64,000 nt of DNA from a virus. Made by a program: the position numbers and the translations under genes. The notes beneath the pieces were generated by a model. The model did no database searches, was not told where the DNA came from, and saw only the letters and a program-made list of their open reading frames with translations. Positions 1,823 to 41,156 of the stretch are shown in pieces (positions within the stretch are counted from its first letter, which is position 1; each line of letters begins with the position of its first letter). Location of the stretch: the IMG/VR virus record IMGVR_UViG_3300033145_000767, positions 1 to 64,000 of that record; one strand, written 5' to 3'.

Positions 1823-1829
1823 TAATTTC

Positions 1830-2128
1830 TCTTCTAGGAGGTGAGTTGAACACCCACCTATATCTTAGGTTAGTTTAGATTATACCAATAGTCTCTTAGT
1901 TATTTTTCCCTTAGGGGGCATCCTTTACTATGTGCGTAGTAATCTAAATTGCAATTGGCTAGGGCATGGAAATCCTTTTACAGCCCCAGATGGTAGTGGT
2001 TAGCCAGTTGTAAGCTTTTTAGTCATATGAGGGATATATTCCCTTATTTGTAACCTTTAGTTTTTAAGCAACATCAGTTTACTGGACTTATTAACCACTT
2101 GGTAGACAAGGGCAGAATATACCCTTAC
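1830..2128 (-). ncRNA. Candidate structured ncRNA with tRNA-like 3' T-arm
   Basis: Complementary pairs AGTGGTTA/TAACCACT, CCAGT/ACTGG, GGCTG/TAGCC, TTTAGATTA/TAATCTAAA, ACCTA/TAGGT and GGGTG-TTCAACT-CACCT; no ORF; lies downstream of a predicted promoter. Confidence 0.45.
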
Positions 2129-2135
2129 CTATATA

Positions 2136-2166
2136 TAAGTATAGGAATATATAAAGGATTCTTTAG
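2136..2166 (-). promoter_or_regulatory. Putative phage late promoter CTAAA-N16-CCTATACTTA (copy 1)
   Basis: Same motif and spacing as 2649-2679; resembles the sigma28/SigD consensus. Confidence 0.55.
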
Positions 2167-2648
2167 CTTTATTTTAAAATAATTCCTATTATCTACCATT
2201 ATCTTCTATTAGTTCTTATTTATACTTAAATCGCCGTTTTGTTCTTTCCGAGTCCATTCGTTCCTCTTACTGCGTAAGTGTTACTCATTCCCTCGTTAAA
2301 GTTAGAAAACAACGGTATAACCTAATAGCGTGCTTTCTAACTTCTAAAAGCTTATACCCTAGGGGGTTACAACTATGCCATAGAGACATCTGCTTTTATC
2401 TACCCTAACATGTGCTAAATATCTACCCTGTTGCTATTAAACAATTTAGAACTTCGGGCTTTAATATTTCCCATATTAAACCCCTTGTAAACAAAGGGGT
2501 TATATCAATAAATGCTGTTTTAGTACAATTACTCACATCTACCTAGTTTCTGCCCTGTTGGTACTAAACGACTTACACCAATATTAAAACATTCACCCTC
2601 TGAGAGCATACAAGATTACTTATATACACTTCAACCATCTTACGATAG

Positions 2649-2679
2649 TAAGTATAGGATTAAAACAGGAAAAGTTTAG
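2649..2679 (-). promoter_or_regulatory. Putative phage late promoter CTAAA-N16-CCTATACTTA (copy 2)
   Basis: Same motif and spacing as 2136-2166, with an A/T-rich upstream element. Confidence 0.55.
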
Positions 2680-3303
2680 GTATTTCTCAAAATAATAGCT
2701 ATATTCCAATGGTGTAGAGGGTAGCATGCCCTTGAGCCACAGAAACGCTAGGTGTCTACCGTAATAGACCCTTGACCCCCAGTAGGTTATACCGTTAGGT
2801 ATACCCTTACTACACCGTTATTATACCCGTAAAAACCTCCAGCGTCAGCTCCAAATACCGTAGGCTCCTAAAATAAAATCTGGGAGGAATGTGCTAATCC
2901 TAACCCCTCCCCCAGCTCTATCCCTTGTTACTCCATACACTTATGATTCCATGGGTAAAGGTTTACACACTATCCTATTAGGTTATACTGTAGCAGTACA
3001 CACACATAGTCCAATATATACTCTTATATTATAATACTGTTGCCCTGTGTTGTAGTGTTGTTTTAATACTTATTACTTGCATTCCTCAGGGTATGCTATA
3101 ACATCTTTTTTATTTACTAGGCTAATAACAGGCACTTTACACCAGATAATATTATAAGGTATATTTAAGACACTTTAAGCGATAGGCTATAGGTTCATAC
3201 CATTAAAGGTTAAACAGGCTTAAAAAGGTATCTGCAATGTTTTTAAAGGGGTATGCAACAGGGGGAGGGGGTATAGTTATTATCTTATTTTATAGGCAAT
3301 AAA

Positions 3304-3335
3304 AAAAGGGGCAAGCTGTTAGGCTTGCCCCTTTT
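3304..3335 (-). terminator. Rho-independent (possibly bidirectional) terminator
   Basis: AAAAGGGGCAAGC-loop-GCTTGCCCCTTTT just past the stop of 3347-3739. Confidence 0.85.
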
Positions 3336-3346
3336 GTAGCAGGGTA

Positions 3347-3739
3347 TTATTTGCTTGTAACTAAGTTGCCTGTGTTATCTACCTTGTTACCTCTTAGGTT
3401 AAAAACACATACCAGATTACTAAATTCCAGAGGGTTTTTATGGTGTTTACTTTGCAGTACACCATAAATGGTTCTTGCCTTACCAGAATTTAAGGCTTTA
3501 ATACCTGCTGTTATAGCCTTATTAATGTTAGTGTAACCTGTTTTTTCCTCTAACATTTTCATACTACTTGCCAGATAAATTTTATCACCTTTGTTAACCT
3601 TTTTTGACCTGCTGTAAGTATTTTTTGCTGTAGATTGAATAGAGGTTTTAATTACTGCTTTTTTACTGACAGTCTTTTTGCTCTTAATTGTTACTGACTT
3701 ACTGCTTTTTTTTGCCTGTTTTTTAATTGCCTTTTTCAT
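3347..3739 (-). CDS. Basic Lys-rich protein (H1-like N-terminal tail), putative DNA-binding
   Basis: KKAIKKQAKKSSKS...KKTVSKKAVIK; GGGAGG RBS before ATG at 3739. Confidence 0.7.
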   Translation of the reverse strand: MKKAIKKQAKKSSKSVTIKSKKTVSKKAVIKTSIQSTAKNTYSRSKKVNKGDKIYLASSMKMLEEKTGYTNINKAITAGIKALNSGKARTIYGVLQSKHHKNPLEFSNLVCVFNLRGNKVDNTGNLVTSK

Positions 3740-3786
3740 AATTCCTCCCATGTTACTGTTATAAAACAAATTAGTTATAATACCCT

Positions 3787-3939
3787 TTACAGCTTTATTA
3801 TCTTATAAAAATCCCCCCTTTGTTTTAGCATAATTTTTTGCCCCTCTTTTAATAGTGTATAGGCTCTATTGATTTTCCTCAGGCTTGCTTTTTTATGCTC
3901 TAGTAGTAATTGGATTTGTAAGATGTTTAATTTTCTCAT
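3787..3939 (-). CDS. Small basic protein, probably leaderless
   Basis: 50-aa ORF whose ATG lies 6 nt after the -10 box of the leftward promoter. Confidence 0.45.
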   Translation of the reverse strand: MRKLNILQIQLLLEHKKASLRKINRAYTLLKEGQKIMLKQRGDFYKIIKL

Positions 3940-3945
3940 AATTAA

Positions 3946-3974
3946 AGTATACCTGACGAATTTGAAAATTGCTA
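3946..3974 (-). promoter_or_regulatory. Leftward sigma70-type early promoter
   Basis: TAGCAA-N17-TATACT, mirror image of 4195-4223. Confidence 0.65.
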
Positions 3975-4027
3975 ATGAATTTGCTATTTTTTTTTAAAAT
4001 CAATTTTGCAGCAGATTTAGGGGACTT

Positions 4028-4043
4028 TGGCATGATTATTGCT
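4028..4043 (+). promoter_or_regulatory. Sigma54 (-24/-12) site
   Basis: TGGCATG-ATTA-TTGCT matches TGGCAC/TG-N4-TTGCW. Confidence 0.75.
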
Positions 4044-4068
4044 AAGGGAAATTATTTCGGGGATTTGT

Positions 4069-4084
4069 AGCAATTTCCGTGCCA
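4069..4084 (-). promoter_or_regulatory. Sigma54 (-24/-12) site
   Basis: Minus strand TGGCACG-GAAA-TTGCT, perfect consensus. Confidence 0.8.
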
Positions 4085-4194
4085 ATCCTCAGAAAAAATT
4101 ATTCCTTGCTTTCATCCATGGAGTGTATATAGGCAACTTGAAATACCTCTCCGAAATAGCCTTAAAATAAGGTTAAAAAAAATGCTTTTCCTAT

Positions 4195-4241
4195 TAGCAA
4201 TTTGCAGCATTACATGGTATACTTTAACAGGTTCATTGAAA
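4195..4241 (+). promoter_or_regulatory. Rightward sigma70 early promoter with extended -10, followed by a boxA-like element
   Basis: TAGCAA-N14-TGG-TATACT, then GTTCATTGAAA (4231-4241). Confidence 0.65.
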
Positions 4242-4244
4242 GCA

Positions 4245-4810
4245 TTATTTTATAGTATGAGGTAAAAAGCACTCAGTAGGGAAAGCCCCTCGTAAGTATT
4301 GAGGAGGTTAGTACCAAAAGCCGAAAGGCTGTGGAAGGTAAAGTCCTTTCTGGGTATGGCGAACCGAGTTTCCTACAACGAAATTCTCTACCATATCGGG
4401 AAGAAGGGTACTGAAGCGAGGATAGCGGGATTCCTGATAAACTATAACTTAGTTGGAAAGAGTATAAAGCCTATTATATTATATAGGAACTTAACCTATA
4501 TATACCGAGATTTTAGGCGGGAAGAATAAAAAAACTCCCCACTACTTAATCCCCTGCTGATAACATAGCAGGCTAATCTAATGGTTATCCGACATGGCTG
4601 GCATGGTACGGTGTGGGATGCTCGGTAAGATAATATCCGAGTTAAAAGAAAGCATACTATTTGACAGTAGGGAGAACATCCTATAATGATATAAAGTATG
4701 GTTAAAATGTCGAAATGGGAGCATACAATTATTTAGTTACCTTTATATAAGGGGCTAACCTTGCGTTCCCATAGGCTATATATAGTGATATGATAGCCCT
4801 GAGGAAGACA
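4245..4810 (+). ncRNA. Candidate long structured leader RNA
   Basis: GC-richer non-coding stretch with AGCC-GAAA-GGCT hairpin and crossing helices GTAGGGAAA/TTTCCTAC and GGTATGG/CCATATC. Confidence 0.45.
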
Positions 4811-4833
4811 AATCACTTAACAAGGGAGGAAAT

Positions 4834-5007
4834 ATGCAAAAAGATTTACATGATTTTTTATTAGAGGCTTGGAATCAAACAGAACACGGATGTATCAGCT
4901 TAGTAAACATAAAAGTTAGGGCAGAAAATGAAAAAGAAGCAAAAGAGAAAGCAAGGAAACTTGTTGATAGGGAAAGATTTACAGTAACCCATGTAACAGC
5001 TGCATAA
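4834..5007 (+). CDS. Small early protein (paralogue of 5023-5235)
   Basis: GGGAGG RBS; VRAENEKEAKEKARKL motif. Confidence 0.7.
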   Translation: MQKDLHDFLLEAWNQTEHGCISLVNIKVRAENEKEAKEKARKLVDRERFTVTHVTAA

Positions 5008-5022
5008 GCAGGGGAGAAAAAA

Positions 5023-5235
5023 ATGAAAGATGATGTAGATATTAAATCCAAAGGTTTAATTGAGGAAGTAAAAAGGTATATCATCCACGGGTGGAATTAT
5101 GTGGGGGTTAGTAAAAATGATAAGGAACTAATAAAATTAAGGGTTAAAGCAAAAAATGATAAGGAGGCTTTAATTAAAGCAAAAAGATTAGCAACTAGGG
5201 ATAATTATAATATAGTTGAAATAAGGGAGATTTAA
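5023..5235 (+). CDS. Small early protein
   Basis: RBS; VKAKNDKEALIKAKRL motif. Confidence 0.7.
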   Translation: MKDDVDIKSKGLIEEVKRYIIHGWNYVGVSKNDKELIKLRVKAKNDKEALIKAKRLATRDNYNIVEIREI

Positions 5236-5250
5236 ACAAAGGGAGGCAAC

Positions 5251-5670
5251 ATGGATAGGGTAAAAGGCAGATGTATTCATCTAATGGAATATGAGTGTTG
5301 TGCAATATGTTCAGGTCTTATGGAAAAGAAAGAAAAACAGCAACTGGAATATAGTGATGTAAGAGTACGGAGGTCAGAGGCTAGGGCAAGGCGTTTATAT
5401 ATGCAGGAATCTAGCAAGTTTTTCGCTACAAAGCACGCAGAACCCTACACAGATGAGGAATTGAAATATATCATTGTTAATACTAAGGATACCACAAGGC
5501 AAGATACCGAAATATTTTATAATATAGCAAAGGAAGTAAAAAGAAGGCTTGGTAGTATTGAATGGTTATGGAATTATATATGGCGTGAAGGATTTAATAA
5601 TGTTTTAAAAGCTGGTTATGATAATAAACTATATGAAAGAGTCCAACAATTAAAAAAGGGGTTAGTGTAA
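5251..5670 (+). CDS. Hypothetical protein with CxH..CxxC and Myb/SANT-like HTH
   Basis: RCIHLMEYECCAICSG; YTDEELKYI...IAKEVKRRLGSI. Confidence 0.65.
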   Translation: MDRVKGRCIHLMEYECCAICSGLMEKKEKQQLEYSDVRVRRSEARARRLYMQESSKFFATKHAEPYTDEELKYIIVNTKDTTRQDTEIFYNIAKEVKRRLGSIEWLWNYIWREGFNNVLKAGYDNKLYERVQQLKKGLV

Positions 5671-5861
5671 TGAGGTGTCCTCATTGTAATTATGTTCATA
5701 ATGAAATGAATGAATTTAACGAATGGGTGGAAGGAGAACATGGGGATTTTTATACAAATGATGTGTCTTTAATGCTAAGAGGGGCAGGGTTGGGAATTGG
5801 AGATGTAGAATCTAAACTTATAAAAGGATGCCCTAAATGCAACAAATTATTTATGTTATAA
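5670..5861 (+). CDS. Zn-ribbon protein
   Basis: CPHC...CPKC. Confidence 0.7.
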   Translation: MRCPHCNYVHNEMNEFNEWVEGEHGDFYTNDVSLMLRGAGLGIGDVESKLIKGCPKCNKLFML

Positions 5862-6129
5862 TTAAAAAGGGAGGCTGTATAATGTTTTATTGTATAGTTT
5901 GTAAGGAATGGCATGACTATTCGGAAAGTTTAGCCTGGGTAAGAAAAAGAAAAGGTAAGATATTAGGATTGGTTTGTGATGATTGTATAGATAATATTGA
6001 AAGGGAATAGTCATGAGGATGCATATGTTTCCACAGAGCAAAATGAGATTATCATTTATATTAGCATTTATCCTAATATTCGCTTTAATACTAAATACTC
6101 TGGGAAATTGCTACACGCTATAACTAATT

Positions 6130-6225
6130 GAGGGGGTAATACCGATAAGGTAATGGGAGGTCGAAACTCTCCATGGTAAGGTAGATAGTAATCTACTACT
6201 GCTTACTATGTAGGTATATCCCCTT
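6130..6225 (+). ncRNA. Candidate multi-stem structured RNA
   Basis: Closing stem AGGGGGTAATACC/GGTATATCCCCTT enclosing two hairpins; intergenic. Confidence 0.4.
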
Positions 6226-6247
6226 ATTTTTAATAAGGGAGGCAGTA

Positions 6248-6742
6248 ATGAAAAAGTTAAGGCTACTAATAACTGAGGATTGTAATAGGTCTTGCAAAGG
6301 ATGTTGTAATAAAGATTGGGATTTAAAGTCTTTACCTATAAATAAAGGTTATAAAGGCTATAAGGAAATAATGCTTACAGGTGGAGAGCCTATGTTATAC
6401 CCTAATCTTATTATAAAGATATGCAAGGAAATTAGAGAGCAAACTGATTGCCCTATATACCTATATACCGCAAAGGTTGAGGTATTATATGATATATTGG
6501 AAGTAATGTTTAATTTAAGCGGGATTTGTTTAACATTACATGAACAAAAGGATGTAAAACCTTTTATATATTTTAGTAATATGCTAAATCAGCTAGGAGC
6601 TAAAGGCTCTTTTAGGTTAAACATATTTAAAGGGATTAATACATACAATGTAGATTTATCTGCATGGAAGGTAAGAAAAGATATGGTATGGATGAAGAAT
6701 TGTCCTATACCAAAAGATGAAGTTTTTAAAAGGTATAACTAA
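6248..6742 (+). CDS. Radical SAM protein (minimal)
   Basis: CNRSCKGC (CxxxCxxC) and LTGGEP. Confidence 0.85.
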   Translation: MKKLRLLITEDCNRSCKGCCNKDWDLKSLPINKGYKGYKEIMLTGGEPMLYPNLIIKICKEIREQTDCPIYLYTAKVEVLYDILEVMFNLSGICLTLHEQKDVKPFIYFSNMLNQLGAKGSFRLNIFKGINTYNVDLSAWKVRKDMVWMKNCPIPKDEVFKRYN

Positions 6743-8265: not shown

Positions 8266-8280
8266 ATATTCCAAAGGAAT

Positions 8281-8405
8281 GTATAAGGCTGTTTAAGGGC
8301 TTTATTTTTAGGGTATATAGTACTTTATACCTCTATAAAGGGGGCTTAAACAGGCTTAAAACAGGCTTAAAACAGGCTATATTATAGGCTATAATACATT
8401 ACAGG
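8281..8405. repeat. ~11-bp periodic intergenic element (AAAACAGGCTT units), member of a dispersed family
   Basis: Tandem CAGGCTTAAAA repeats flanking a central AGGGTATA-N8-TATACCT palindrome. Confidence 0.7.
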
Positions 8406-8431
8406 CAAGCACAACAGAAAGGCCCTAAGGA

Positions 8432-11137: not shown

Positions 11138-11547
11138 GAACTATGCCACAATGTAAGCACAGAATTTTTGAGGATAGGTGTATTTATTGCACAGGGGCAT
11201 GGCGGGAAATATTTACTCATGCATTACATCATATGTGTACTGAATCTATGGATTATAATTTAAGTGATAGTCTGGAAGCCCTTATTCAAAGGACTGAGGT
11301 ATTAGCAACAAGGGATGAAGATGTCTATGTAGATTCGGAGTTACAGTACATACTTAGGTGTTTCAGAGGAGTTAATTTATATGATTTTGAAAGCCTAGCA
11401 ATAATTGCAGAAAGGTGTGGAAGGTCTATTTTGGATATAATATATATTCAATCAAATTATTATGGTAAAGAGGAAGTTAAACATTTTAATTTAAGGCTAA
11501 GGTTTTTGGAGAAAAAATACAAAAAAAAGGAGGTAATAAGTGCTTAA
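11116..11547 (+). CDS. Hypothetical protein, paralogue of 5251-5670
   Basis: CKH...CIYCTG; YVDSELQYIL. Confidence 0.6.
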   Translation: MGCSHILGTMPQCKHRIFEDRCIYCTGAWREIFTHALHHMCTESMDYNLSDSLEALIQRTEVLATRDEDVYVDSELQYILRCFRGVNLYDFESLAIIAERCGRSILDIIYIQSNYYGKEEVKHFNLRLRFLEKKYKKKEVISA

Positions 11548-14540: not shown

Positions 14541-14965
14541 TGATACAAATAAGTAATAGAGATGTATTACAAAGGAGAGTGTTAGAATTAATGCTCTCGG
14601 AGGGCATTAAAGATTTAAAAACAGTTATGGATATTGTATATGCAGAATACGCATATACTAAGGATGCCCTAGTAAATGCCATTTATGATTTATCCACCAA
14701 ATGGTTTATAGAAACAGGTCGGGGAGGTTATAGTGAACCTGATGGAATCTATACTAGGTATCAAGTTATTATGTTTGATAAAAAAGGTAATGTGGAGTCT
14801 ACCCCTATATTTAAAGATGCGGATGATGCCTTAGATATGTATTCAATATGGAGAGATAAGCATATTTTTAATAGATGTAGGGTTGCAAAAATTGACACTC
14901 TCCATAGTAAAATACTAGATGTGTTATTAGATGATTTTGAAGTAGAGGAAGGGGATGATAAATAA
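14537..14965 (+). CDS. Hypothetical protein
   Basis: Coupled ORF within the ligase cluster. Confidence 0.65.
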   Translation: MMIQISNRDVLQRRVLELMLSEGIKDLKTVMDIVYAEYAYTKDALVNAIYDLSTKWFIETGRGGYSEPDGIYTRYQVIMFDKKGNVESTPIFKDADDALDMYSIWRDKHIFNRCRVAKIDTLHSKILDVLLDDFEVEEGDDK

Positions 14966-15934: not shown

Positions 15935-15939
15935 ATGGG

Positions 15940-16085
15940 GTATATTTTAACCTATAGTATAGGCTTATAACAGGCTATCTTAGAGGGGGTCTTATTAAGG
16001 TATAGACAAGCATATACCCTCTATAAAAGGGCCTTAAAACAGGCCCTAAGGGGCTTATTTAAGGCTATTATATAAGCCTATAACA
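15940..16085. repeat. ~11-bp periodic intergenic element
   Basis: Phased AGGC/AAAA units around AGGTATA-N8-TATACCC. Confidence 0.65.
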
Positions 16086-16113
16086 TACAATAACATATAA
16101 TACAAGGAATATT

Positions 16114-18057: not shown

Positions 18058-19062
18058 ATGAAACCTGTAAATAAACTTTCAGAATTTTTTAAAAACCTTT
18101 GGGGTACAGTAGAGGAGGAGGAAGAACCAACAGTTGAAATAATTGTTCCTACTCATACGACTAAGCCCCTAAGAAAATTTATATTTAGACCAAGGAATCT
18201 ATCTGAATATATAGGTCAGGAAAAAGCTAAGGCTTTGATAAGACTTAATATAAAAAAGATATGTAACATAAAGCCTGTCCATATACTTATAAATGGTAAT
18301 GCTGGGCATGGAAAGACTACTCTTGCCTATGTTATAGTAAATGAATTAAGGTCTAAAATGTACTCAGTTATAGGAAGTAATTTTACAAGGGAAGCTTTGT
18401 TAGATTTTATAAAAGCTAATGAACAGGACTTATATAACTTACACATACTTTTTATAGATGAAATCCACTCTATGTCTAAAGATATGGCAGAAGTATTATA
18501 TCCTATATTAGAAGATTTTAGGCAAGCAGATGTGGATTTAAAACCTTTTGTTATGATTGGAGCAACAACTGAAAAAGCAACTTTAATTAAAAGATTCCAC
18601 CCATTAGTAGATAGGTGTGGATGTCAGATTCATTTAGAATCCTATACTAATTTAGATATTGAAAAAGTATTATCACAATATAGTCAACAGTTATATGAGG
18701 AATATCTAGTACCCATAGATATTATTAAAATATTATCTGCTAGTAGTAAGAATGTTCCTAGAATAGCTATCGCTATGTTAGATGATTACATTGTATGTAA
18801 GGATATAGATATGGTTTTATCAGCACATAGAATGGTTAAGGGAAGTTTAAATGAAATTGATATACAGATATTACTATGTCTAAGAACAAATGGAAAACCT
18901 ATGGGGCAGAAAAATATTTCTACCAAAGTAGGGATAGACCAAGTAGACTATGTATATATGTATGAGCCCTTCCTAATAAAGGAAGACTATATAAATGTAA
19001 CCACAAGGGGCAGGGAGATTACACCTAAAGGCACAGCTGTCCTACAAGAGATAGGGGTTTAA
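18058..19062 (+). CDS. ruvB: Holliday junction branch-migration helicase RuvB-like AAA+ ATPase
   Basis: RPRNLSEYIGQE, GNAGHGKTT, LFIDEIH, MIGATT, C-terminal wHTH YEPFLI...TTRGR. Confidence 0.9.
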   Translation: MKPVNKLSEFFKNLWGTVEEEEEPTVEIIVPTHTTKPLRKFIFRPRNLSEYIGQEKAKALIRLNIKKICNIKPVHILINGNAGHGKTTLAYVIVNELRSKMYSVIGSNFTREALLDFIKANEQDLYNLHILFIDEIHSMSKDMAEVLYPILEDFRQADVDLKPFVMIGATTEKATLIKRFHPLVDRCGCQIHLESYTNLDIEKVLSQYSQQLYEEYLVPIDIIKILSASSKNVPRIAIAMLDDYIVCKDIDMVLSAHRMVKGSLNEIDIQILLCLRTNGKPMGQKNISTKVGIDQVDYVYMYEPFLIKEDYINVTTRGREITPKGTAVLQEIGV

Positions 19063-19786: not shown

Positions 19787-19921
19787 AAGTGCCTTAAAAC
19801 AGGCTATAGGGGGCTTTTAGGGGCATTTTTAAGGGGGTAAAACAGGCTTATATTGCACATGCAAAGGAATGAAAAGGGGTAATACATATATGGAAAATCA
19901 GCAAATACTTGGAGGAAGATA

Positions 19922-39219: not shown

Positions 39220-39671
39220 AAATGAGCATTAAAAATGAGTACTACAAAAAGTATCCTTGGCTACACTCTTTAATGTTAGCTAAACAAAGGTGTAACAATA
39301 AAAAAAATAATAGGTATAAAACCTATGGTGGTAGGGGTATAAAACTATTTTTAACCAAGGAAGCCATAAAGAAACTTTGGTTTAGAGATAAAGCATTTAA
39401 TATGATTAAGCCCTCTATAGACCGTATTAATAATGATGGGAATTATGGGTTTAGTAATTGTAGGTTTATTGAAACATCCGATAATGTAATTAAATCTAAA
39501 GAAAAAATTATTAATCAATATGATTTACAAGGTAAATTTATTAAATCTTGGAAAAGCCAAATTGAAATACAAAATACTTTAGGTTTTTTACAATGCTGTA
39601 TTTCAGATGTTTGTAGAAAGAAACAAAAAACTGCTTATAGTTTTATTTGGAAGTTTAAAAAAGAGAGGTAG
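39216..39671 (+). CDS. HNH-type homing endonuclease with NUMOD1
   Basis: YGGRGI, PSIDRINNDGNY..NCRF. Confidence 0.85.
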   Translation: MKMSIKNEYYKKYPWLHSLMLAKQRCNNKKNNRYKTYGGRGIKLFLTKEAIKKLWFRDKAFNMIKPSIDRINNDGNYGFSNCRFIETSDNVIKSKEKIINQYDLQGKFIKSWKSQIEIQNTLGFLQCCISDVCRKKQKTAYSFIWKFKKER

Positions 39672-40554: not shown

Positions 40555-41156
40555 TGAGTAAAATAATATTAGGGTATATAGCAGAAGAAGGTGATGCAAA
40601 ACGAATGGAAGAATTTCAAATATCGCCTGAAACTAATGAATGTCTAAAACCTATTTATAAGAAAAATAAAATAATAGTAATAGATAAAATAAAAAAACAA
40701 TTTCTAAAGAAGTATTTTCTTAAATACCCTTGGATGAAGCATTATTTCAATGCTAGAAGAAGGTGCAAAGATAAAAAGTTCTATAGCTATAAATATTACG
40801 GTAAACTTGGCATTAAATGTCTAATTAATAGGGTTGAAATTGAGGAAAGATGGTATAAAGATAAAGCATATAAAATGAAGAAACCGACTTTAAGTCGTAG
40901 TAGCCATGATAAAGATTACACTTTTAAAAATGCTAGGTTTATAGAGAATTCTAATAATATAGCGGAAAGAAATAAAAGAGTATGCTCAAAAAAAATAGAA
41001 CAATATGACTTAGAAGGTAATTTTATTAAAGAATGGGAAAGCCAATCTCAAATAGAAAGGTGGTTAGGTTACGACCAAGGTAATATATCAAATGTATGTA
41101 GGGGCAAGTATAAACAGTCATATGGTTTTGTTTGGAGGTTTAAAGATGCCAAATAA
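40542..41156 (+). CDS. Homing endonuclease paralogue (divergent HNH plus NUMOD1)
   Basis: YPW..HY.NARRRC, YGKLGIK, NARFIE, SYGFVWRF. Confidence 0.75.
   Translation: MEKIMSKIILGYIAEEGDAKRMEEFQISPETNECLKPIYKKNKIIVIDKIKKQFLKKYFLKYPWMKHYFNARRRCKDKKFYSYKYYGKLGIKCLINRVEIEERWYKDKAYKMKKPTLSRSSHDKDYTFKNARFIENSNNIAERNKRVCSKKIEQYDLEGNFIKEWESQSQIERWLGYDQGNISNVCRGKYKQSYGFVWRFKDAK

Follow-up and report, generated by a model that had tools for sequence, protein, structure and literature searches.

The stretch of DNA analyzed here (the window) comprises 64,000 nucleotides, positions 1 to 64,000 of the IMG/VR virus record IMGVR_UViG_3300033145_000767. It forms the first 64 kb of a phage genome of 90,469 bp which is rated complete and whose record ends are identical over 114 bp. 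The GC content is approximately 0.32. The plus-strand arm extends from about 4.8 kb to 66.5 kb and encodes clamp loaders, a primase, a UvsX-like recombinase, PolA, SbcCD and three amidoligases. The minus-strand arm runs from 66.5 kb via the record end to 3.9 kb and carries the genes for the major head protein, the tape measure and a tail protein. Early and replication functions are encoded on the right arm and structural ones on the left. In the whole genome both arms diverge from a single gap at roughly 3940–4830; the first rightward gene starts at 4834, and the leftward genes start at 3939 or 3739. Within this strand-switch gap two sequences of the sigma-54 -24/-12 type face each other. This pair is the subject of the present analysis.

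Two facing sigma-54-type sites between outward promoters

The right-pointing site TGGCATGATTATTGCT occupies positions 4028–4043 of the plus strand and the left-pointing site TGGCACGGAAATTGCT positions 4069–4084 of the minus strand. The sites are thus crossed, with the right-pointing one standing on the left. Both 16-mers had been noticed in a first-pass annotation of this DNA; their positions and strands were confirmed, and the GG-N10-GC spacing is correct in each. Transcription starts were estimated at 19 bp downstream of the motif centre, a rule used in PMC4591121. The starts predicted by the annotation, ~4054 on the plus strand and ~4058 on the minus strand, agree with this rule. Both fall into the 25-bp spacer between the sites (4044–4068), which shows no dyad symmetry, and transcripts from the two estimated starts would overlap by about 5 nt.

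A search with the pattern TGGCAY-N5-TTGCW (TGGCAYNNNNNTTGCW) returned only these two exact matches in the window, where 0.10 were expected. The same two were the only exact matches in the whole 90,469-bp genome, and the pattern read backwards gave 0 matches. When one mismatch was allowed, the 4 matches in the window were at chance level (2.94 expected). In shuffled versions of the window 2 exact matches anywhere in the 64 kb were reached in 1 of 100 cases, which leaves a little room for a chance co-occurrence of two consensus matches. However, the two sites face each other within 57 bp in the one divergent gap of the genome, and the shuffle rate leads to an expectation of only about 8 × 10−7 facing pairs with a gap of 15–35 bp per 64 kb. 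Moreover, this facing-pair pattern was found in at least 119 stretches of IMG/VR, whereas the same pattern reversed was found in 0. Chance is hardly a credible explanation of the pair.

The two sites are identical throughout the consensus positions and share both the G at position 7 and the T in front of TGG, whereas only 2 of the 5 spacer positions agree and the 25-bp centre is asymmetric. Agreement at the positions critical for sigma-54 combined with such differing spacers fits selection for sigma-54 contacts and not a simple palindrome. The symmetry of a dyad operator, running through the whole half-site and the centre, was not observed. Folded as a single strand or cruciform, the region 4020–4092 gave a weak structure (−10.8 kcal/mol, z −2.4). 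An extended sigma-54 consensus, mrNrY-TGGCACGr-N3-TTGCW, was reportedly put forward by Barrios et al. in 1999. The minus site with its flank, aggaT-TGGCACGG, fits the mrNrY-TGGCACGr part at every position. In the plus site Y, G7 and r8 agree with it, and two upstream positions do not.

The pair is nested between two mirror-image promoters of the sigma-70 type. The leftward promoter P_L (3946–3995, minus strand) consists of an A9 tract, N12, ATTAGCAATTT containing the -35 element TAGCAA, N17 and the -10 element GGTATACT. The rightward promoter P_R (4175–4223, plus strand) consists of an A8 tract, N12, ATTAGCAATTT, N17 and TGGTATACT. In the first-pass annotation TAGCAA-N17-TATACT had been placed at 3974–3946 (−) and 4195–4223 (+); both were found again, and they are the only two such matches in the genome. 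When P_L and P_R are aligned they share the A8–9 tract, a 12-nt gap, ATTAGCAATTT, a second 12-nt gap and GGTATACTTTAA. By this alignment they are judged to be paralogues, both directed outward and both with UP-like tracts. Upstream of each outward promoter there is one sigma-54-type site which points in the same direction. Likewise, each site is located upstream of, and co-oriented with, the arm which it faces, i.e. the plus site with the plus arm and the minus site with the minus arm. The feature is real and non-random, and most likely it represents a minimal crossed sigma-54 pair framed by two sigma-70-type promoters.

The heptamer TAGCAAT occurs four times at 3968–4201, namely at 3974–3968 (−), 4044–4038 (−), 4068–4074 (+) and 4195–4201 (+), and a variant TAGCAAA is found at 3986–3980 (−). 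There are 18 copies of TAGCAAT in 90 kb, and the presence of 4 of them inside 234 bp corresponds to a Poisson probability of about 2 × 10−7, a value that cannot be taken independently of the duplicated promoter or the TTGCW consensus. In each of the outward promoters the heptamer is the -35 element, and in each of the sigma-54-type sites it overlaps the -12.

Recurrence of site pairs in other viruses and in prokaryotes

Among the matches listed, the IMG/VR loci with a facing pair fell into 40 families by DNA similarity, six of them with 62, 8, 6, 5, 2 and 2 members and 34 being singletons. None of these matches is related to the phage studied here at the protein level; the best relation was that of PolA at 20–26% identity. 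In addition, a blastp comparison of 14 hub proteins with 3,202 open reading frames (ORFs) near other pairs gave no match at E ≤ 0.05. For two other site-bearing phage families a blastn search for named relatives yielded nothing useful. The 518 unique viral sites among the matches listed showed clear preferences at positions which the pattern leaves free. A T preceded TGG at a frequency of 0.70, G or A stood at position 7 at a frequency of 0.96, and A/T preferences followed TTGC. These preferences follow the extended sigma-54 consensus given above.

In 596 Gb of prokaryote genomes the facing-pair pattern gave only 62 matches in all, many of them on short contigs of metagenome-assembled genomes or in perfect hairpins. 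Position 7 was a purine in both halves of 29 of these 62 matches, compared with 108 of 113 unique viral pairs among the matches listed. Since 2.9 million viral contigs cannot plausibly exceed the prokaryote set in bases, the element is concentrated in viruses. Several of the prokaryote matches (L134–L195, from GTDB) are perfect hairpins with complementary spacers, for example L139, L143, L169 and L179. Hairpins of this kind look like terminator-type palindromes which match by accident.

Clusters of two or more sites within tens of bp were thus found recurrently in phages and beyond the control, with the present genome contributing one facing pair. Among the matches listed, neighbouring sites at the ascertained loci were arranged in tandem (181), facing (172) or back-to-back (100), and after de-replication the gap of facing sites showed no preferred value. 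Phages cluster these sites in several geometries, and the crossed pair described here is one of them.

The genomic context of the other pairs was taken from a crude ORF call. Among the matches listed, 42 of the 73 intergenic pairs with both flanks known were flanked by divergent ORFs, compared with a baseline of 162 of 1,085 adjacent ORF pairs. Grouped by family, the pairs lay between divergent ORFs in 10 cases, between co-directional ones in 13 and between convergent ones in 2, inside an ORF in 10 and at a contig edge in 5. In about 50 of the 119 loci listed, mostly those of the biggest family, the pair was found within 3 kb of terminase genes. At these loci (within L006–L124) a small AT-hook-like protein, an M15-type peptidase and the large terminase were recognized within 3 kb of the pairs, the gene names having been assigned by eye from the sequences. 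Judged by these names, the largest site-bearing phage group appears to keep its cluster beside the packaging genes.

Two single loci deserve mention. On the unrelated phage contig L070 (GC 0.33) a weak leftward promoter-like sequence (9/12), a facing pair and a strong rightward sigma-70-type promoter (11/12) are flanked by genes on both sides. This contig would appear to reproduce the layout of the present phage, with the limit that a promoter scan of the 600-bp region gave 3 matches against 3.2 expected and places the 9/12 leftward match at chance level. At positions 11315–11374 of L014, an unrelated viral contig with a GC content of 0.36, five tandem 17-bp units abut a facing pair. These units look like iterons or an activator array.

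Some of these observations raise the question of whether the pair belongs to a replication origin or another site of DNA handling, its boxes serving as a landing pad for a replication or packaging protein. Such a function would agree with the tandem repeats of L014, with the roughly 50 listed loci near terminase genes and, in the present phage, with the A/T tracts and repeated heptamers beside the pair and with the sign of the GC skew, which flips at ~4000 in the divergent gap. However, the skew change coincides with the switch of the coding strand and is therefore not independent evidence for an origin. Furthermore, the pair has no initiator gene next to it and lies 4 kb from the contig start, and in the literature searched no link of sigma-54-type boxes to replication was found. 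We consider an origin or packaging site very unlikely.

Possible readers of the pair

The first-pass annotation had seen no GAFTGA-type activator. This holds for the whole genome, in which GAFTGA is absent in all six frames. GAFTGA or RpoN-box peptides were found neither in the phage genome nor in the loci L001–L132, and Sigma54_DBD was not found in the phage genome. A PF00158 match at 18058–19062 was considered as a candidate activator and rejected, as it corresponds to a clamp loader and the family also gave signals in all 14 control genomes. As the phage has neither an activator nor a sigma-54 of its own, any reader or activator must come from the host. A Shine-Dalgarno word precedes 113 of 147 genes (background 0.20). 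In Bacteroidota heavy use of Shine-Dalgarno sequences and -35/-10 promoters are not expected. Both features of this phage argue against a Bacteroidota-type host. No tRNAs were found in the phage genome, and no lysin was recognized among 10 further phage proteins.

We propose that the 16-mers are genuine sites for the sigma-54 holoenzyme of the host which stand face to face in the middle of its only divergent control hub. To this prediction we give a probability of roughly 0.45. Several observations weigh against it. The ATTGCTA at the -12 of both sites is the -35 heptamer of the outward promoters, and this sharing means that another protein could be the real reader. AAA+ activators with a GAFTGA loop usually bind 80–150 bp upstream of such promoters, but in 3880–4260 neither a consensus for integration host factor nor an upstream activator site was found. 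For gaps of 21–29 bp in viral contigs, facing sites were found in 65 stretches and back-to-back sites in 108, the latter with a slightly looser pattern lacking the two outer W positions. Back-to-back pairs are hence at least as common, and the facing geometry is not specially selected across phages. Finally, among the matches listed only 10 of the 40 families carry the pair between divergent ORFs, and 10 carry it inside an ORF of at least 80 amino acids.

If the shared heptamer indicates another reader, the pair could be the operator of a different phage or host protein which recognizes TAGCAAT or TTGGCA half-sites and controls the outward promoters, and the match to sigma-54 would be partly coincidental. 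Four of the 18 genomic heptamers lie here, two on each side and all of them reading outward. They coincide with both outward -35 elements and with both -12 elements, and small orphan genes are located beside the hub. On the other hand, a bipartite 16-bp half-site which is present twice with exact GG-N10-GC spacing and full consensus is unlikely as a by-product of such an operator, and the spacer and centre lack dyad symmetry. The 40 unrelated viral families (among the matches listed) share no hub protein with this phage, so that a common host factor is the simpler reader. An operator of this kind therefore seems distinctly unlikely to us.

If the 16-mers are read by host sigma-54, each arm would possess a constitutive sigma-70 promoter and a distal, enhancer-dependent sigma-54 promoter. 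The holoenzyme would park on its sites without firing until released by an ATPase activator which the host would supply. To our knowledge, no other bacterial sigma factor holds polymerase on DNA in this way to await release by an ATPase. Of the two polymerases, only one at a time would open and leave. The -12 elements are 29 bp apart, the estimated starts 4 bp, and each 16-mer covers roughly +15 to +31 relative to the start of the other site. Footprints of sigma-54 holoenzyme cover approximately -34 to -5 in the closed complex and extend out to about +20 in the open complex. Two closed complexes might or might not coexist on the pair. Opening at either site requires DNA that belongs to the other, which would result in one-at-a-time firing. 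From this geometry we infer mutual exclusion at the open-complex stage.

The first-pass annotation had read the pair as a mutually exclusive left/right switch operated by host RpoN and coupled to the nitrogen or stress state of the host. Of this proposal, the occurrence of the sites beyond chance, their sigma-54 geometry and their position in the hub are supported, and mutual exclusion would follow from the geometry. The switch is plausible on geometry, whereas the coupling to nitrogen or stress is speculation. What the sequences show directly is the identity, statistics and position of the sites, their recurrence in other phages and the lack of an activator or sigma-54 gene in the phage; binding of sigma-54, firing, mutual exclusion and dependence on the host state are inferred.

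The holoenzyme could also bind without any RNA being made. One or two closed polymerases would in this case act as a docking or anchor point, as an insulator between the arms, or as a sink by which the multiplying phage genome withdraws scarce sigma-54 from host stress operons. PMC4591121 reports that inactive holoenzyme binds promoters stably and that under any one condition the majority of E. coli sites remain silent. The phage lacks an activator, the search for an upstream activator site was negative, and none of the repeats in the hub could be assigned as one. Furthermore, the dense arrays of mixed orientation in other phages look more like docking arrays than like promoters, and about 50 of the 119 loci listed have their sites within 3 kb of terminase genes. 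Against binding without transcription, both sites are oriented properly as promoters of the arm which they face, and the outward promoters fire away from the pair, which leaves nothing obvious to block. A sink, also raised in the annotation, is unattractive with two sites per genome. A roadblock repressing the sigma-70 promoters, its other alternative, fits poorly as well, since the expected footprints of the outward promoters stop short of the pair, which argues against direct occlusion. Overall, binding without firing is possible, if on the unlikely side.

Enhancer-dependent sigma-54 promoters of bacteria include glnAp2, nifH and pspA. The sites described here resemble bacterial promoters of this class in the TGGCAC-N5-TTGCW core, the GG-N10-GC spacing, the extended flanks and the position upstream of and co-oriented with genes. 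At glnA a sigma-70 promoter (P1) and a sigma-54 promoter (P2) are arranged in tandem, and this is resembled by the tandem of a sigma-54-type site and a sigma-70 promoter on each side of the pair. Unlike the bacterial promoters, the present sites are phage-borne, face each other with starts 4 bp apart and have no recognized activator gene or activator site. In E. coli, hycA/hypA and zraP/zraSR possess divergent back-to-back sigma-54 promoters with an activator site between them and without competition of the polymerases. The phage hub shares with these systems two sigma-54-type sites for opposite units in one intergenic region, but its sites are crossed and each lies in the initially transcribed region of the other. 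General properties of sigma-54 promoters are described in PMC4591121 and PMC5053324. According to PMC4591121, inactive holoenzyme also occupies consensus sites of E. coli without obvious activators. Those silent sites are, according to the same paper, scattered singly and mostly intragenic, whereas here a pair is located in an intergenic hub and is of a kind concentrated in viral contigs.

Phage use of sigma-54 had been called poorly described. This is fair, with Pseudomonas phage YuA as a precedent: PMC5053324 and bioRxiv 10.1101/2023.10.13.562163 report that its development depends on host sigma-54, and the latter also a sigma-54-like promoter region seen by ONT-cappable-seq. In the YuA record NC_010116 three -24/-12 promoter fragments are annotated; they are single, co-directional and located inside late structural genes. 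None of them matches the consensus within 1 mismatch, and over the 50 kb examined a single match of this quality was found, at 14765 (−) and outside the fragments. The present phage resembles YuA as a phage without its own sigma-54 which carries -24/-12 sites for the host factor, here predicted ones. It differs from YuA in that its sites match the consensus perfectly and form a facing pair in the early control hub. The accessible parts of PMC3391216 and PMC7693777 mention only a phage-borne regulator of the sigma-54 type and a weak sigma-54-like protein, and no binding sites. In the literature searched we found no account of paired or arrayed sigma-54 sites in phages, and no phage use of sigma-54 apart from YuA.

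More tentatively, and with the odds rather against it, the pair may represent an undescribed class of control element in many unrelated phages, in which docking sites for host sigma-54 are clustered in hubs and no phage activator is encoded. In the present phage the crossed pair would be a poised, one-at-a-time bidirectional start device, and host activators or host physiology would choose whether the early or the structural arm receives extra transcription. If true, phages would possess a widespread and compact means of linking their gene expression to the signalling of the host, or of hijacking a host factor that is scarce. The present genome would be the simplest test object, as one pair with two clear flanking promoters and no array fits on a 300-bp fragment.

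Neighbouring genes, leaders and relatives

On the leftward side a 50-residue ORF (3787–3939, minus strand) begins with an ATG 7 nt past the -10 of P_L. Its status is uncertain. It may not be a real gene, and if it is, its mRNA may be leaderless. Lambda cI transcribed from P_RM has a similar leaderless layout. No Pfam or PHROG match was obtained for this ORF, and the homologue search was also empty. The first solid leftward gene (3347–3739, minus strand) encodes a lysine-rich protein of 130 residues and has a strong ribosome-binding site. It is followed by an intrinsic terminator (3304–3335, minus strand) with a 13-bp stem and a T run.

On the rightward side an ORF-free leader of about 600 nt (4230–4833, plus strand) leads from P_R to the first gene. 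It is GC-richer than its surroundings and folds better than 20 of 20 shuffles (z −3.06). For a 57-residue ORF at 4356–4529 within this leader no homologue was found among 1.84 billion representatives. Rfam gave no match in the window at gathering thresholds and none in 3700–4900 at E ≤ 1. The plus-strand gene at 5251–5670 encodes an early protein of 139 residues whose N-terminus has a conserved C-x-H...C-x2-C and whose C-terminus is rich in tryptophan; it was used as a marker for relatives of the phage. C8, H10, C17 and C20 are invariant, and the C-terminal block RRLGSIEWLWNY is conserved in five relatives. The AlphaFold model of this protein is poor (mean predicted local distance difference test score 63). 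The hub proteins including this one gave no informative Pfam or PHROG match.

Relatives of the phage were sought via the hub proteins. The 139-residue protein has five homologues with 58–70% identity, one of them on a contig of 90,813 bp, and the 130-residue protein has four with 60–75% identity. Contigs of 5,917 and 11,752 bp are each given for homologues of both proteins, and should the contigs be identical in both cases, the hub lying between these genes would be syntenic on them. Scans made with the alignment A1 found nothing in metagenome, viral or genome contigs, and a degenerate DNA pattern of a conserved peptide gave 0 matches in metagenome contigs. Neither tblastn against GenBank phages nor blastn of the region 3000–6000 gave a match, and no sequencing run, of RNA or otherwise, was listed for 2500–6500. 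Other proteins of the phage had at best distant or non-syntenic matches in IMG/VR. There no match was obtained for a 261-residue protein, and the matches of PolA reached at most 30% identity. A radical-SAM-like protein matched L005 with 54% identity, a fragment without the hub and without an intact site.

Between an HNH gene and the terminator at 3304–3335, positions 1823–3346 form 1.5 kb without any ORF of at least 60 residues. Long-range complementarity was observed in this stretch between 2311–2324 and 2783–2796 (14 nt, 100%) and between 2312–2328 and 2975–2991 (94%). Possibly the stretch represents a large non-coding RNA, and Rfam gave no match to it. A sequence motif similar to CTTAAAACAGGC, sometimes in tandem, is located in the gaps 8266–8431, 15935–16113 and 19787–19921 of the rightward arm and at 3205–3226, the last copy falling inside the 1.5-kb ORF-free stretch. 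This motif is a candidate middle promoter or phage regulator site. Finally, the regions 39220–39606 and 40555–41091 are gaps in the crude gene call which appear coding-like and are similar to one another, perhaps as copies of a small nuclease-like gene that are degenerate or whose start was wrongly called.

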